Assembly (NCBI GenBank): GCA_044375335.1
Contig: JBILMW010000002.1
Location: 59-64,058 of the forward strand
DNA from: Terrimicrobiaceae bacterium
GTDB taxonomy: Bacteria; Verrucomicrobiota; Verrucomicrobiia; Chthoniobacterales; Terrimicrobiaceae
Direction: 5' to 3'
DNA length: 64,000 nt
Shown: piece by piece, positions 1-35,194 of the stretch
Layout of the letters: each line of letters opens with the position of its first letter
Numbering within the stretch: position 1 is the first letter of the stretch
Notes under the pieces: model-generated
Databases searched by the model: none
Seen by the model: the letters and a program-made list of their open reading frames with translations, nothing else
Told to the model about the DNA's origin: nothing
Made by a program: the position numbers and the translations under genes

Positions 1-128
1 TTTAATGCGATCAAACGCTGTGATCTTCAAATGCGTCACACCTATTTTCGGTTGCAATTGCTTCATCTTAAATTTTTAATTTAACCCATTTCTTCTCTCA
101 ACCGGACACTAGTGAAAATCCCTACCCG

Positions 129-329
129 ATGCAACTCGAGCCACTCCATCCCATTCAGATTCAGCGATTCCGCGAAATGACTTTTGCTGAGAAATGGGCT
201 GTGGCCCAAGGATTGTGGCTCATGGCCCGTGATGCCCGCCTGGCGGCGAGCCGGCGAGCCAATCCCGATCTCACCGAAGAAGAACACCAAAAATCTGTTG
301 CCCGTGAATTCGCCCGAACCAGAACCTAA
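129..329 (+). CDS. small hypothetical protein (66 aa), possible antitoxin-like partner of the downstream gene
   Basis: ORF-track ORF lying immediately 5' of a nucleotidyltransferase-fold gene. Small and charged/helical-looking. No family recognised; the assignment rests on position only. Confidence 0.3.
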   Translation: MQLEPLHPIQIQRFREMTFAEKWAVAQGLWLMARDARLAASRRANPDLTEEEHQKSVAREFARTRT

Positions 330-882
330 TCTCCTCGCCCTCTTCGTGCGCCCCATCCACGATGCCGGCCTCCGCTACATTATTGCTGGATCGGTCGGTT
401 CCATGCACTATAGCGAACCCCGCCTCACGCTCGATATCGATATCCCTTTGCTTTTCAGTATCAAAGACATTCCCACGCTCTTATCCCTTTTTCAAGAACC
501 CGAGTATTATTGTCCGCCTGCCGATGTGATCGCCTCGGAAATTGCTCGCGACTGCCGCAGCCACTTCAATATCATCCATATCCCGACAGGGCTCAAAGCA
601 GACTTCTACCCCGGCAATCGCGACGCCACCTTCGCATGGGCTTGGCAAAACCGACTCACCCAACAAACACCGCTCGGCCCGATCCATATCGCACCAGCCG
701 AATATGTTATCCTCTGGAAAATGATCTTTTACCGAGAAGGCAAAAGCGAAAAACATATCCGCGACATCCAACGCATCCTAGACATTCAGCCCATTCTTCC
801 ACACCAAGACTTCCTCAACGAAGCCATAAAAACCCACGCCCTCACAGACATCTGGTCCATATTCCAACGCCCACAATTGTAG
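184..882 (+). CDS. nucleotidyltransferase-fold protein (MNT/AbiEii-like), start uncertain
   Basis: The motif IIAGSVGSMHYSEPRLTLDIDI fits the minimal nucleotidyltransferase signature GS...D.D. The first 48 or so codons of the ORF-track frame overlap the upstream ORF in another frame, so the true start is probably internal (ATG 232 or GTG 346). Confidence 0.5.
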   Translation: MLRNGLWPKDCGSWPVMPAWRRAGEPIPISPKKNTKNLLPVNSPEPEPNLLALFVRPIHDAGLRYIIAGSVGSMHYSEPRLTLDIDIPLLFSIKDIPTLLSLFQEPEYYCPPADVIASEIARDCRSHFNIIHIPTGLKADFYPGNRDATFAWAWQNRLTQQTPLGPIHIAPAEYVILWKMIFYREGKSEKHIRDIQRILDIQPILPHQDFLNEAIKTHALTDIWSIFQRPQL

Positions 883-921
883 CGGCGCGTCTATGACCGC
901 CGAAAATCGCCCCCCCGGGCG

Positions 922-1075
922 CTCGACCCTCGACCCTCGACCCTCGACCCTCGACCCTCGACCCTCGACCCTCGACCCTCGACCCTCGACCCTCGACTCT
1001 CGACTCTCGACTCTCGACTCTCGACTCTCGACTCTCGACTCTCGACTCTCGACCCTCAACCCTCAACCCTCAACC
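922..1075. repeat. heptanucleotide tandem repeat, 22 units: (CTCGACC)x10 (CTCGACT)x8 (CTCGACC)x1 (CTCAACC)x3
   Basis: Counted directly from the sequence with perfect unit phasing. Intergenic, ending 82 nt upstream of the first glycan gene (start 1158). Confidence 0.97.
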
Positions 1076-1157
1076 CTCGTAACTTCTCCTGCCCATAGGC
1101 GGACCCGTCACGCCGGAGTCGCGTAGCGCGTAGGCGGATCACTTCCTCCTTCTTCTC

Positions 1158-1916
1158 ATGCCCACCACCCGCCGCGTCCTCTCCACCGACCTCGCCTGCA
1201 CCGATTATGAGGCCCTTGGCGCGCACCTCCTCACCCGCTGCCGTCAACCCGGCCCCTACGCCGTCGATTTTTCAAATACCCACATCGCCACCATGCGGCG
1301 TCACGACCCCGCATTTGCAGCCACCACAGCCTGCATCGACCTCTTCGTCCCCGATGGAATGCCCCTCATCTGGTGCCTGAACCGCCAAGGCGCTACGCTT
1401 CAAGACCGCGTCTACGGCCCCACCTTTCTGCGAAAATTCCTCGCCACCTGCCCCTCCAAATTCTCTCACTACTTCCTCGGCGGCAGTCCAGAATGCGGAA
1501 AGAAACTCCGCGAACGCCTGCTCGAAAAAAATCCGCAACTCAACATTATTGGTTCCTACCACGGAAACTGCACCGCCGAAGGGACACTGGAAGATGATTC
1601 CAAAGTCATCCAAGAACTTCAATCACTGCGCCCCGACTTCCTCTGGATCGGTCTGGGCACACCCAAGCAATACCACCTCCTCCACCGCCTCAAACCCCTC
1701 CTCCCGAGCGGAATCCTCCTTGCCGTTGGCTTCGCCTTCGATGTCAACGCCGGCACCAAACCCGATGCCCCAGCTTGGATGCAACGCACAGGCCTCACAT
1801 GGACCTACCGCCTCGCCAGCGAACCCCGCCGCCTCGCCGCCCGCTATTTCAAGTGGAACACGCTCTTCTTGTATTACCTGTTGAAAACTAAAAACTACAT
1901 CAATGGTAGACCATGA
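1158..1916 (+). CDS. WecG/TagA/CpsF-family (GT26) glycosyltransferase
   Basis: 252 aa. Motifs: VYGPTFL, FFLGG, LWIGLGTPKQ and the C-terminal TWTYRLASEPRRLAARY, typical of GT26 N-acetylmannosaminyl/ManNAcA transferases. Confidence 0.8.
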   Translation: MPTTRRVLSTDLACTDYEALGAHLLTRCRQPGPYAVDFSNTHIATMRRHDPAFAATTACIDLFVPDGMPLIWCLNRQGATLQDRVYGPTFLRKFLATCPSKFSHYFLGGSPECGKKLRERLLEKNPQLNIIGSYHGNCTAEGTLEDDSKVIQELQSLRPDFLWIGLGTPKQYHLLHRLKPLLPSGILLAVGFAFDVNAGTKPDAPAWMQRTGLTWTYRLASEPRRLAARYFKWNTLFLYYLLKTKNYINGRP

Positions 1917-2620
1917 ACGCGCCCGAACTCGCCATCATCATGCCCGTTTACAACGAGCAGGCCTCCGTCCGGAAGGTGGTCACAGAATGGTTTCATGAAA
2001 TTGAAAACTGGACTGAAAGCTTTGTTTTTCTTTGCATTGATGATGGTTCCAGAGACAAAAGCCTTGAGATCTTGCAACGCCTCCAGCAACAACTTGGAAA
2101 TCGCATTCAAATCATTACCAGAGAGAATAAAGGGCACGGCCAAAGCTGCATTGAGGGATACAACTGGGCCTGCAAGCAAGAAATTCCTTGGGTCTTTCAA
2201 ATCGACTCAGATGGCCAATGCGACCCACAGTATTTTTTCCGCTTTTGGCGTCTGCGACAAAACTACGATGTCGTTTATGGCGTCAGAACACGCCGCGATG
2301 ATGGATGGCGGCGCGTTATGGCCAGTTGGGTTTTGAAAGGCGTTTTATTAACCACGCAAAGAGTTTGGTGTCCAGATGCCAATGTTCCCTACCGCTTGAT
2401 TAAACGCGAGATTCTGACAGCAGAAGTTGAAAAAATCCCTCGCACTTTTTTCTTGGCAAATATCGCACTTGCTGTGCTGCTTAAGAAATCCGCCGTCTCT
2501 CATGGGTATGTCCCCATTGGCTTCAGGGAAAGATATGGTGGCGAACCAAGCGTGCGCTTGGGGAAATTTACAGATAAAGCTGTTGAACTGGTCAAACAGC
2601 TTGCAGATCTACCAAAGTGA
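1913..2620 (+). CDS. GT2 glycosyltransferase, polyprenyl-phosphate sugar synthase-like (GtrB/ArnC-like)
   Basis: N-terminal LAIIMPVYNEQ...IDDGSRDKS...DSDGQ (GT-A fold with DxD). The ATG overlaps the upstream stop (ATGA) and the stop overlaps the next start. Confidence 0.8.
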   Translation: MNAPELAIIMPVYNEQASVRKVVTEWFHEIENWTESFVFLCIDDGSRDKSLEILQRLQQQLGNRIQIITRENKGHGQSCIEGYNWACKQEIPWVFQIDSDGQCDPQYFFRFWRLRQNYDVVYGVRTRRDDGWRRVMASWVLKGVLLTTQRVWCPDANVPYRLIKREILTAEVEKIPRTFFLANIALAVLLKKSAVSHGYVPIGFRERYGGEPSVRLGKFTDKAVELVKQLADLPK

Positions 2621-4122
2621 ATACCGCTGAGAAATTCCAGAACTGCAATTTTATACAGGCAGCCGCGCTTGTTTTTGTTGCACTTATCGGAGTGATTGCG
2701 ATATCCAACCAATCCCTCTGGATTGATGAAGGCAATAGCGCCATGAAGGCTATCCAGCCAAATTTTGTGCTTTTCTGGGGAAAAATGAAAGAACTCGGCG
2801 GTTCCGATTTGCAGATGCCGCTTTACATGGGCCTATTGTGGTTATGGGAGAAGATGTTGGGACATAGTGAGTATGCCTTGCGCGCCTTAAACATTCCCTT
2901 TTTCACTTTGAGCGCAGGAATTCTTCTTTATCTGTGGGACGCCGAACGCCGCCTCAAGTTGGCTTTTATTTTCCTGATGTGTTTTTCACCCATGCTTTGG
3001 GTGTATCTCGATGAAGCCAGGCCATATATTTTTCAGTTTTTTGGAGCGACCTCCATTCTCGTAGCACTGTGGAATCAGGCAAAGAAGCCTCATCTTAACA
3101 AAAACTTAGCCGTCTTCTGCATAGGAGCTCTGGCGCTCTGTGGATCCAGCCTTACAGGTGTTATTTTTACTTTTTGGTTCGGGCTGGCTTTTCTTTTCAT
3201 TCTCATTCGCCAACATGCCTGGCGCAGCATTTTTAGCTCGAAGCAGAATCTACTCATTTTGGCACTGACAAGCATTGGCATGTGTGGCTTAGGAATGTAT
3301 TATTTCTGGACTCTCAGCCAAGGTGCCCGCGCGTCGGGAGTTGGCAAAACAGACCTGCTCAGCATAGGATTCTGCCTTTATGAGTTGCTCGGATTCAGTG
3401 GCCTGGGCCCAGATCGTCTGAGCCTCCGCGAGCACGGCATCACTTCACTGAAGCCCTTCTTCTTGCCTCTCACCTCTCTGGTAATAGCCCTCACAGCCTT
3501 TGGGATTTCAAGCGCGCTTTGTATCACGAAAAGCTCTCGAATGCATCGCACAAAATTTTTCATTTTCGCTGCGGTATTTTGTGGAGCCGTGTCCATGGTA
3601 GCCGTTGGCTACATCGCACATTTCCGAGTGCTGGGCCGCCACTTGATGCCAATCCTTCCGTTCGTTCTTTTGCTTGTGAGCTTTGGCTTTCTGCACTTAT
3701 GGCAATCCGACAAAAAACTAAGCCGAGCGGTCGTTTTAACCATCTGCCTGCTGCTCATTCTCTCCAGCCTGTCAACCAGATTCAGCCCACGCTTCGCAAA
3801 AGACGACTACCGCACCGCTGCGCAGATCGCTAAATCCAGCCAAGAAGACGAGAAAACAATCTGGTGGGCTGCAGACACGGCCACGGCTAACTATTATGGG
3901 TTAGAATTCAGTGAAAAAGTGATAAATGTCGTGGGGCTATCAGCAGAGGAACTCCAAAACATTCCAATACCAGATATCGTTCTTGTCTCCAAATCGGACA
4001 TTTACGATTCGAATTGCTTCATCACAGATTTTTTAGTTGATAAAAACTTGGCGTCTGTGCGAAAAATCAAAGCCTTTTCAATTTATCGCTTTGATAGCGT
4101 TAACTTAAGCTGCATGCTATAA
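2617..4122 (+). CDS. GT-C fold membrane glycosyltransferase (ArnT/PMT-like)
   Basis: 501 aa polytopic membrane protein with many hydrophobic segments. SLWIDEGNS acidic motif after the first TM segment, as in GT39/GT83 enzymes. GTG start overlaps the GT2 stop (GTGA). Confidence 0.65.
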   Translation: MNTAEKFQNCNFIQAAALVFVALIGVIAISNQSLWIDEGNSAMKAIQPNFVLFWGKMKELGGSDLQMPLYMGLLWLWEKMLGHSEYALRALNIPFFTLSAGILLYLWDAERRLKLAFIFLMCFSPMLWVYLDEARPYIFQFFGATSILVALWNQAKKPHLNKNLAVFCIGALALCGSSLTGVIFTFWFGLAFLFILIRQHAWRSIFSSKQNLLILALTSIGMCGLGMYYFWTLSQGARASGVGKTDLLSIGFCLYELLGFSGLGPDRLSLREHGITSLKPFFLPLTSLVIALTAFGISSALCITKSSRMHRTKFFIFAAVFCGAVSMVAVGYIAHFRVLGRHLMPILPFVLLLVSFGFLHLWQSDKKLSRAVVLTICLLLILSSLSTRFSPRFAKDDYRTAAQIAKSSQEDEKTIWWAADTATANYYGLEFSEKVINVVGLSAEELQNIPIPDIVLVSKSDIYDSNCFITDFLVDKNLASVRKIKAFSIYRFDSVNLSCML

Positions 4123-15810: not shown

Positions 15811-16782
15811 TTGAATCCAAATTTTAGCATCGTTACACCTATCTTCTGCCAACTCGATTGGCTCAGGTTGTGTATCGCCAGCGTGCAGGATCAAGTAGTT
15901 GCCACGCCCTCGACTCTCGACTCTCGACCCTCAACCCTCTCCATCGAGCACATCATCCAAGATGCGGGCACGCCAGGCATCGAAGACTTGGCTCGAGAAC
16001 TTGGTGCTGAGTTTTACCGTGATGGTCAGCTTGTATTTAGTGAGCGGAAAGAGACGAGAGACAAGCGCCGAGAGACAAGCCAACAGCACTCAAAACCCAC
16101 CAATGAGGATCAATCGGTCTACTCTCTCAAAATTTTCAGCGAGAAGGACGCTGGAATGTATGATGCCATTAATCGTGGCCTTGCGCGCTCTGCTGGAGGG
16201 ATTTGTGCATGGCTTAACTCTGACGAGCAATATCTGCCCGAGACCCTTTCCAAAGTGGCGCAGATTTTTCAGCAGCAAACAAAGTTGGATGTCTTGCTTG
16301 GCGATGCGATTTTGCTTAATTCCTCCTTGGAGGCCATTTGCTATAGGCGAATTATGCTTCCCAGCCTTTGGCATACGCGCCTGGACCATTTGCACTCACT
16401 GAGTTGTGCCATGTTCTTTAAAAAGTCTGCCCTACCAAATCCCCCTTTGAATCCTCGCTGGAAGGTTGTTAGTGATGCAGTTTTGATGGAGCATTTTCTG
16501 TTTAGCAGGAAAAACATCTACGCCTGCCAGTTGCCTCTGGCAGCTTATGCCTTCACAGGACAAAATCTTAGTGCAGACAAGAATTGTAAAGAACTGGACC
16601 AATGGTGGGCGGAAACGCGCTGGCCTCCGCGAGCACTTAAGCCTCTCGTTGTCATTCATAACCGCTTCCGACGATTGCTGGCTGGCGCCTATCAAAATTT
16701 CCAACTGAATACAAAAATCCATACTTCTTTTGGATATAAATCCCTAAAAGAAAGCGTTTCAGGCCTATGGCCAGCCCATTGA
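15811..16782 (+). CDS. GT2 glycosyltransferase containing an in-frame heptamer-repeat tract
   Basis: FSIVTPIF...IEHIIQDAGTPG...DAGMYDAINRGLARSAGGICAWLNSDEQYLP is a typical GT2 (WcaA-like) pattern. TTG start. An extra segment, VVATPSTLDSRPSTLS, is encoded by the CTCGACY/CTCAACC repeat. Confidence 0.8.
   Translation: MNPNFSIVTPIFCQLDWLRLCIASVQDQVVATPSTLDSRPSTLSIEHIIQDAGTPGIEDLARELGAEFYRDGQLVFSERKETRDKRRETSQQHSKPTNEDQSVYSLKIFSEKDAGMYDAINRGLARSAGGICAWLNSDEQYLPETLSKVAQIFQQQTKLDVLLGDAILLNSSLEAICYRRIMLPSLWHTRLDHLHSLSCAMFFKKSALPNPPLNPRWKVVSDAVLMEHFLFSRKNIYACQLPLAAYAFTGQNLSADKNCKELDQWWAETRWPPRALKPLVVIHNRFRRLLAGAYQNFQLNTKIHTSFGYKSLKESVSGLWPAH
15909..15936. repeat. heptanucleotide repeat tract inside the GT2 CDS: (CTCGACT)x2 (CTCGACC)x1 (CTCAACC)x1
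   Basis: Read directly. Same units and same order as the 3' end of the 922..1075 array. Confidence 0.95.
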
Positions 16783-35008: not shown

Positions 35009-35194
35009 CCAGAACAGGCCGGTTGACTTGATCTATTCGTGCAGTATTGGCTCGCGTCATGCCTCCAGCATGCGCTTCGCGAAAGTGTTAAGCGACACCA
35101 ACGAGGCTCAGCGCATAAACAACGGTGTCTGCAAAAAAGAATTCCAGACCGAAAAAACTTCAAACTTAACACCTAAAACTTAAAACTCCTCTCC

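Follow-up and report, generated by a model that had tools for sequence, protein, structure and literature searches.

What does a long tandem array of heptanucleotides do in front of a glycan operon in an uncultured, presumably free-living freshwater bacterium, and how did it come to be there? In host-adapted pathogens, there is ample documentation of mutable repeats by which surface structures are switched or tuned, and intragenic heptanucleotide contingency repeats occur in glycan genes such as pglE of Neisseria (CAAACAA) and neuO of Escherichia coli K1 (AAGACTC). To our knowledge, mutable surface-structure repeats have hardly been documented in free-living environmental bacteria, for which phages are the main selective pressure on surface glycans. 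The over-representation of heptamers with lineage-specific units is in itself already known in bacteria (PMC4692102, PMC4679880).

Here, we analyzed the left edge of a 64,000-nt stretch of DNA from a Terrimicrobiaceae metagenome-assembled genome (the window), together with orthologous loci, natural alleles in metagenome contigs and the distribution of the repeat unit in the genus and beyond. The array proves to be a real heptanucleotide repeat that is young and evolves fast, probably lying in the leader of a glycan operon.

Array sequence and gene context

The array lies between the stop codon of an upstream gene (882) and the ATG of a GT26 gene (1158). The features that concern it are:

129–882, plus strand: TA-like two-gene cassette encoding 66 aa (129–329) and 192 aa (GTG 304 to 882)
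868–921, plus strand: left arm and loop of a REP-like hairpin (TGTAGCGGCGCGTCTATGACCGCCG, then AAAATCG, C7, GGGCG), a dispersed element
922–991, plus strand: array block 1, (CTCGACC)x10; the minus strand reads (GGGTCGA)n, a G3N4 quadruplex-type motif
992–1047, plus strand: array block 2, (CTCGACT)x8; G-runs absent on both strands
1048–1079, plus strand: array tail, (CTCGACC)x1 (CTCAACC)x3 and partial CTCG
1078–1146, plus strand: second dispersed repeat (CGTAACTTCTCCTGCCCATAGGCGGACCCGTCACGCCGGAGTCGCGTAGCGCGTAGGCGGATCAC), ending ..GCGTAGCGCGTAGGCGGATC, many copies in the genome
1147–1157, plus strand: pyrimidine-rich stretch with no Shine-Dalgarno motif, immediately 5' of the GT26 ATG
1158–1916, plus strand: GT26 gene (WecG/TagA/CpsF family), first of the operon; Pfam Glyco_tran_WecG PF03808, E 8.6e-48
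1913–2620, plus strand: GT2 gene, start overlapping the preceding stop
2617–4122, plus strand: GT-C-like membrane protein gene, start overlapping the preceding stop
15909–15939, plus strand: second CTCGACY tract, with four in-frame units (..PSTLDSRPSTLS..) within a loop of GT2 (gene 15811–16782)

Direct reading and a unit-by-unit parse of positions 922–1075 both gave (CTCGACC)10 (CTCGACT)8 (CTCGACC)1 (CTCAACC)3, followed by the partial unit CTCG, and Tandem Repeats Finder placed the array at 922–1079 (period 7, 22.6 copies, 97% matches, score 239), all in agreement with the composition and coordinates of the original prediction. Chance origin is excluded, because the shuffled genome (2.79 Mb) yielded no perfect period-7 array of at least three units, versus 8 such runs in the real genome, three of which are blocks of this array. 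When imperfect repeats are allowed, its 22.6 copies compare with 13 for the next longest non-triplet array of the genome. The array is a near-perfect tandem repeat of the kind that defines an SSR contingency locus (unit of 1–9 nt, slippable copy number).

The source genome is a 2.79-Mb MAG of 274 contigs (56.6% G+C), for which reason the exact count of 22 units rests on assembly, and its array is located ~980 nt from the end of a contig. In other assemblies, the locus is broken or has an N gap within the array, and the length and block structure could in principle have been made by the assembler from a short or heterogeneous repeat. We consider this most improbable: independent JGI and ENA assemblies give 10- and 11-unit arrays with an identical left junction, one allele with six C and five T units (C6T5) is exactly alike in two assemblies, and the longest perfect runs within the array (70 and 56 nt) are bounded by variant units and were judged, as an estimate, to be within reach of the large k-mers (77- to 141-mers) of metagenome assemblies. 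In practice, such repeat tracts break short-read assemblies at the edges of glycan loci. A protein-coding reading of the array (ORF 893–1126, with 'STLDPRP' repeats) was rejected because natural alleles differ by unit numbers that are not multiples of three and the ORF is unconserved.

The distance of 82 nt from the end of the array to the GT26 start codon is right, because homology among nine orthologous regions sets in at the ATG at 1158, and both the gene assignment and the spacing proposed earlier are borne out by the PF03808 match and the start shared among orthologues. Since the starts of the GT2 and GT-C genes overlap the stops of the genes before them, the three genes form an operon and would be co-expressed; the same trio is found in a related contig (L224). 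The gene order in related contigs (leuCD, MarR-like gene, TA cassettes, GT26) likewise supports the earlier placement of the array at the 5' boundary of the glycan locus. In one related contig (L222), GT26 is truncated after its first 65 nt (3387–3540) and followed by a NAD-dependent epimerase gene, a breakpoint of glycan-locus replacement just inside GT26.

Dispersed repeats around the array

The boundary stretch that holds the array is made entirely of repeats. In the source genome, the array occupies the place of the right arm of the REP-like hairpin, which is complete (TGTAGCGGCG.GTCTATG.CCGCCG, loop, CGGCGGTCATAGACCGCCGCTACA) elsewhere in the genome (contig C87) and in relatives (L006, L007); the poly-C run of the element is polymorphic, with 4 to 8 C across alleles. 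A check for REP- or MITE-like behavior found that the flanks (868–915 and 1078–1146) are dispersed and that the long array itself is present at one site only. The second dispersed repeat also adjoins heptamer arrays in other genomes of the genus (L152, L155, L156).

Upstream of this boundary, in the region corresponding to window positions 1–921, three related contigs (L222, L224, L225) carry tandem TA-type cassettes between the MarR-like gene and GT26. These are of several types (66 + 192 aa, 84 aa + PIN, MNT + HepT), and every one is bracketed by the same ~60-nt REP-like hairpin. The TA cassette stays 98–99% identical across genomes in which GT26 departs from that of the window by 11–16%. 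Reading these hairpins as integron attC sites was rejected, as the RYYYAAC/GTTRRRY core sites are absent (judged by eye only). A conserved non-coding stretch of ~90 nt (..CCATGGAACGGCC..AAAGGCGGCAGCATGGGTTGAAATAATCAGCC) follows the MarR-like gene, ~100–300 nt upstream of GT26, in L003, L004, L005, L008 and L163, and at G000 C141:3300-3507; it matched no Rfam family and could represent a small RNA or leader not yet described.

Natural alleles of the array

None of nine upstream regions of GT26 orthologues, drawn from eight genomes of the genus, contains the CTCGACY array; the first 300 nt of GT26 are 81–92% identical to the window in the eight of these regions that were measured. One of these genomes (G008, locus L006) has the same TA cassette, and there the right arm of the hairpin plus AAAACTCGCCACCAGTTACCCGCCAAG fills the place of the array, with (CTCACT)4 before the ATG.

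The 66-aa + 192-aa TA-like cassette served as the anchor for finding natural alleles, which were gathered by exact look-up of the 66-aa protein and retrieval of independent JGI, ENA and Logan metagenome contigs; exact look-up of the 192-aa protein in metagenome records returned no entry, and junction-pattern scans of metagenome contigs gave no matches. In the contigs obtained, the left flank (window 129–921) is 97.6–99.1% identical to the window, and GT26 is 84–89% identical, i.e., 11–16% different. Units were counted in the assembled consensus sequences, over the interval from the stop codon of the 192-aa gene to the start codon of GT26:

0 units, intact hairpin: L224, L226, G008 (L006)
2 units, CTCGACC CTCGACA: L222, L227, L235
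10 units, C10, 28 nt to the ATG: L223
11 units, C6T5, 28 nt to the ATG: L220, identical in L232 (second assembly)
At least 9 units, then a 100-N scaffold gap: L221
22 units, C10 T8 C1 A3, 82 nt to the ATG: window

Three further contigs are partial: one Logan contig (L228) ends four units into the array, another (L236) ends 23 nt past the upstream gene and short of the array, and a 990-nt JGI contig with the exact GT26 protein of the window starts 144 nt before the ATG, within the T block. Contig ends and the N gap within the array are a hint, though no proof, of frequent and reversible length change in a clonal population.

Array length is thus not invariant between populations, as it would have been had the original prediction been wrong on this point, but ranges over 0, 2, 10, 11, at least 9 and 22 units. 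Because near-identical flanks carry 0 to 22 units, copy number changes fast between natural populations, and because GT26 differs by 11–16% this is variation between strains or species rather than rapid reversible switching. The identity of the C6T5 array in L220 and L232 further indicates that the array is not so unstable as to differ everywhere.

All array-bearing alleles have a common junction (..CGCCCCCCC(C)GGGCG/CTCGACC, the slash marking the start of the array), and they are those closest to the window in the flank, which fits a single origin followed by gain and loss of units and growth of variant blocks. A T block is also present in L220, and L223 has none. The successive local expansions suggested earlier from the contiguous runs of variant units find support in the C10, C6T5 and C10T8C1A3 alleles, which share the left junction. 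The 0-unit alleles keep the conserved right arm of the hairpin, so that the array-bearing alleles may reflect a loss as well as a gain; that arm could hold regulatory signals.

Directly in front of the GT26 start codon (1130–1157 in window terms) there is another variable repeat, (CTCACT)n, with 0 units in the window, 1–2 in L220 and L223, and 4–5 in L006 and L222.

The tract in the downstream GT2 gene

The same repeat had also been reported inside a GT2 gene at 15909, and had led to the suggestion that recombination between the two sites is conceivable. The tract is real, with four in-frame units (15909–15936), and positions 1034–1064 of the array are identical to 15909–15939 over 31 nt, including the unit order T,T,C,A. 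It is also ancient, being shared by orthologues in seven or more further genomes of the genus. At this tract the unit order is T,T,C,C in G008 but T,T,C,A in the window, i.e., CTCAACC in place of CTCGACC.

Ectopic copying or gene conversion between array and tract may have taken place. We nevertheless regard it as very unlikely that the array and the tract 15 kb downstream matter chiefly as a recombination substrate, i.e., as direct repeats through which deletion or gene conversion would remodel the glycan locus. The shared 31 nt with its unit order, the CTCAACC unit of the GT2 tract that is specific to the source genome, and the locus replacement in L222 with its breakpoint just inside GT26 would all be expected from such a role. 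However, none of the contigs showed the 15-kb deletion or fusion that this role predicts, 31 nt is a short substrate for homologous recombination, and changes of TCGA to TCAA recur independently in other genomes (L168), so that parallel mutation can explain the shared order. Of the original suggestion, the identity between the two sites therefore stands, and recombination between them stays only conceivable.

Distribution of the CTCGACY family

A genome-wide search, as had been recommended, found further tracts, although the source genome holds only about six CTCGACY sites: besides the two in the window, there are runs of five units on contig C269 and of three units each on C145 and C263, all inside another dispersed element. 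Within the genus, runs of at least three units occur in 13 of 41 genomes, mostly at 1–5 sites each, with arrays of 11–16 units at other loci. In a 300-genome sample of the phylum, only two other genomes had at least three units (a reversed control pattern occurred in about ten), and on the strength of these counts the family is specific to the genus. A GTDB scan for at least four CTCGACY units gave at least 120 stretches in many phyla; among the matches listed, 102 of 133 arrays had exactly four units and the longest had 11, and they were often inverted pairs, forming a potential hairpin just before an ATG, amid unrelated heptamer arrays. The general claim of a cross-phylum CTCGACY element or a site for a common factor was rejected in view of the preponderance of four-unit arrays among these matches and the two genomes in 300 of its own phylum. 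Heptamer arrays as such are general, and their units differ by lineage.

The longer arrays of the genus are intergenic and in sense orientation relative to the next gene. A wzt/tagH-like gene has such an array 9 nt upstream of its ATG, with 16, 11, 4 and 3 units among genomes of the genus, and a site upstream of an LPP20-like lipoprotein gene has 15 units versus 3+3, so that relatives differ in length at the same intergenic site at the GT26, wzt-like and LPP20-like genes; no orthologous array site for the wzt-like gene was found in the source genome. Short tracts (3–5 units) lie in frame and in sense orientation in genes for GT2, two DegT families, GT4/GT1-like proteins and an FkbM methyltransferase, where they encode loops of the ..PSTLDSR.. 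type. All tracts with a readable neighboring gene are sense-oriented (many sites are orthologous and were counted once), and they concentrate in glycan genes, including GT26 and the wzt-like gene, and in one restriction-modification methylase gene. This gene range is the functional spectrum typical of contingency loci.

The methylase gene is an hsdM in G022 (L162, G022:C71; HsdM_N + N6_Mtase) that is frameshifted exactly at (CTCAACT)5 (2018–2052, locus reverse strand); its authentic C-terminus lies in the +1 frame, and four or seven units would restore the frame. A separate observation concerns the wzt/tagH-like gene, the first 152 nt of which (MSDTVIRVENVSKLYRLGEVGTGS..) occur up to 10 times on one contig (G048:C66:33.8-56 kb, G043:C3, G011:C48, G004; L153, L154, L160, L183-L212). 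Some of these copies carry a CTCGACT array ending 9 nt before the ATG, and several are split after codon 10 by an insert of ~85 nt with a stop codon.

Probable leader and structural features

The position of the array relative to the promoter can be approached from the spacing of its relatives. From the array to the ATG there are only 28 nt in L220 and L223, and 9 nt at the wzt-like sites, which is too short for a promoter plus leader and argues for an array that is either transcribed or part of the promoter. Most likely, it lies in the transcribed leader of the GT26-GT2-GT-C operon. A consensus scan of the plus strand in 1–2000 found no sigma-70-like promoter and no terminator, and Rfam gave no family in the first 4 kb of the window or in five orthologous loci. 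Shine-Dalgarno-like motifs are not enriched upstream of 1491 long ORFs (13.2% at -20..-5 versus 13.4% in a control window), with the first ATG of each ORF taken as a crude start call.

The palindrome TCGA recurs in every unit, and the array RNA folds as a weak, any-register ladder of 4-bp UCGA:UCGA helices; by the same logic, single-stranded DNA of the array would fold as the same ladder, and such self-pairing may favor slipped intermediates. Another reading is that transcription or mRNA processing is controlled by G-quadruplexes of the template-strand (GGGTCGA)n, or by an RNA hairpin like that of hmw in Haemophilus influenzae, rather than by length. On the minus strand, at least four G3 tracts with loops of 1–7 nt occur in 922–991 and in 1048–1079, the C block having ten with 4-nt loops and the tail adding four (G4Hunter 1.23 and 1.25), and folding of the minus strand with G4 terms enabled yields a quadruplex. 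The G-rich heptamers of Xanthomonas and Nostoc fold into quadruplexes (PMC4692102), and the frequent inverted pairs among the GTDB matches listed are potential long hairpins before an ATG. Yet the T block falls outside this sequence pattern and, like the all-T wzt-like arrays, has no G-runs (G4Hunter 0.29 for the T block), the window has no inverted partner array, and the leader fold is only modestly better than that of shuffled sequence (z = -2.3), with the array unpaired in the centroid structure. We therefore think it improbable that a structural element of this kind, rather than leader length, is what acts here; like recombination and misassembly, it is a minor reading.

Origin and possible function of the array

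The explanation that we favor, at about even probability, is that of a young, slippage-prone heptanucleotide array in a transcribed leader, in which changes of length grade the expression of the operon. The microsatellite would have been born inside the REP-like hairpin, at the junction of the TA-type cassette and the GT26 operon. Slipped-strand mispairing, probably aided by the palindromic TCGA cores, would add or remove whole 7-nt units, and variant units could afterwards expand as blocks. Changes in copy number would alter the length of the C/U-rich 5' leader by up to ~150 nt, in an organism without a Shine-Dalgarno signal, and the template strand would gain or lose G3 tracts. Graded, rheostat-like expression of the operon, not on/off switching, would be expected.

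Nearly as likely is that the array is a runaway microsatellite in repeat-rich junk DNA, growing by fast slippage, unselected and with no meaningful effect on the operon. Both of its flanks are dispersed repeats, the 0-unit alleles drive the same GT26-GT2-GT-C operon (L224), and the in-frame genic tracts resemble tolerated loop inserts. Period 7 dominates the genome whatever the sequence, with 23 of its 27 non-triplet arrays (at least four copies) being heptameric, and the general over-representation of heptameric repeats in bacteria has been ascribed to polymerase slippage (PMC4692102). Even the gene-context bias may be a by-product, because polysaccharide loci gather repeats and rearrangements for non-regulatory reasons. 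What a neutral origin accommodates less readily is that this is the only long non-triplet array of the genome, that the tracts are strictly sense-biased and clustered in glycan genes, and that the arrays stay nearly pure; moreover, when up to 150 nt are gained or lost in a leader ending 28–82 nt before the start codon, a complete lack of effect is unlikely.

A broader form of the leader-tuning explanation would take in the whole genus. The tracts would then constitute a CTCGACY 'phasome' of free-living freshwater bacteria, seeded by ectopic copying between sites, of which the 31-nt T,T,C,A identity would be a trace, and diversifying surface and methylome by slippage under phage pressure. If so, sense tracts would be retained in leaders, and in permissive loops, of genes for surface glycans, glycan export and restriction-modification, and the GT26 leader array would be the most expanded member, an expression dial of 0–22 steps. 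We consider this genus-wide extension unlikely.

For the tuning of glycan expression by leader length, the natural allele series (0, 2, 10, 11 and 22 units on near-identical flanks, before a three-gene glycan operon) makes a direct test feasible. The locus also offers a worked example of how an array may be born inside a REP-like hairpin and grow in blocks.

Comparison with known heptanucleotide repeats

The intragenic repeats of pglE and neuO share unit size and gene class with the CTCGACY family, and a change of one unit shifts the frame in them as in the hsdM of G022. They differ in that the in-frame CTCGACY tracts look old and stable, and the array in the window, being intergenic, cannot act by frameshifting.

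A functional parallel is offered by the hmw1A/hmw2A genes of H. influenzae, where (ATCTTTC)n is transcribed in the 5'-UTR and expression drops as the array lengthens, the repeats and a G-rich arm together making up a long hairpin, which RNase III cleaves (PMC12721329). In both cases, 7-nt units in ten or more copies lie between upstream signals and the start of a surface-structure gene, copy number varies between natural strains, and a graded model applies, being here the one proposed. Unlike in hmw, no partner arm is evident at the GT26 array, which was born inside a REP-like element and whose host is presumably a free-living freshwater bacterium rather than a host-adapted pathogen; switching and the effect on expression are experimental for hmw and would be predictions for the GT26 array.

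Xanthomonas (GGGAATC) and Nostoc (GGGGA(C/T)T) harbor over-represented intergenic heptamer families with ~180 or more copies per genome, most of ~4 units and few reaching 20–26, with lengths that differ widely between close relatives (PMC4692102). The CTCGACY arrays resemble these and the cyanobacterial STRR in having lineage-specific 7-nt units that are mostly intergenic and occur in direct and inverted arrangements, and the CTCGACC unit, as in Xanthomonas and Nostoc, forms G3 tracts on one strand. In contrast to those families, with their many dispersed copies, CTCGACY has only about six sites in the source genome, half of the GT26 array (the T block) is without G4 potential, and many tracts lie in frame within glycan genes.

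In the genomes of Beggiatoaceae, Cyanobacteria and Bacteroidetes that are poor in Shine-Dalgarno signals, direct repeats of the heptamer TAACTGA stand in forward orientation a few nucleotides before start codons, reach tens of copies and have been proposed to play a role in the translation-initiation region (PMC4679880). Similarly placed is the (CTCGACT)n of the wzt-like gene in the genus, with 9 nt between its end and the ATG. However, the unit is a different one, the array in the window ends 82 nt rather than a few nucleotides before its ATG, and CTCGACY is confined to one genus in the phylum sample, with far fewer sites per genome.

Other repeats and motif biases in the source genome

The commonest period-7 repeat of the genome is an AT-rich heptamer family (AAAACTT / CTTAAAA, 4–6 units), present in the window at 35154–35187 and at ~14 other sites in G000. 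Close to the end of a contig, G000 C267:2234-2381 holds a G-rich compound array in which (GGTTGA)14 precedes about nine GGGRTGA heptamers. TCGA as a target of restriction or methylation was rejected, since this tetranucleotide is not avoided in the genome (O/E 1.08). A separate bias concerns GTAC, which is almost absent genome-wide (36 observed versus 3419 expected, O/E 0.01); together with the low values of ACGT (O/E 0.09) and CTAG (0.28), this scarcity looks like strong restriction avoidance.
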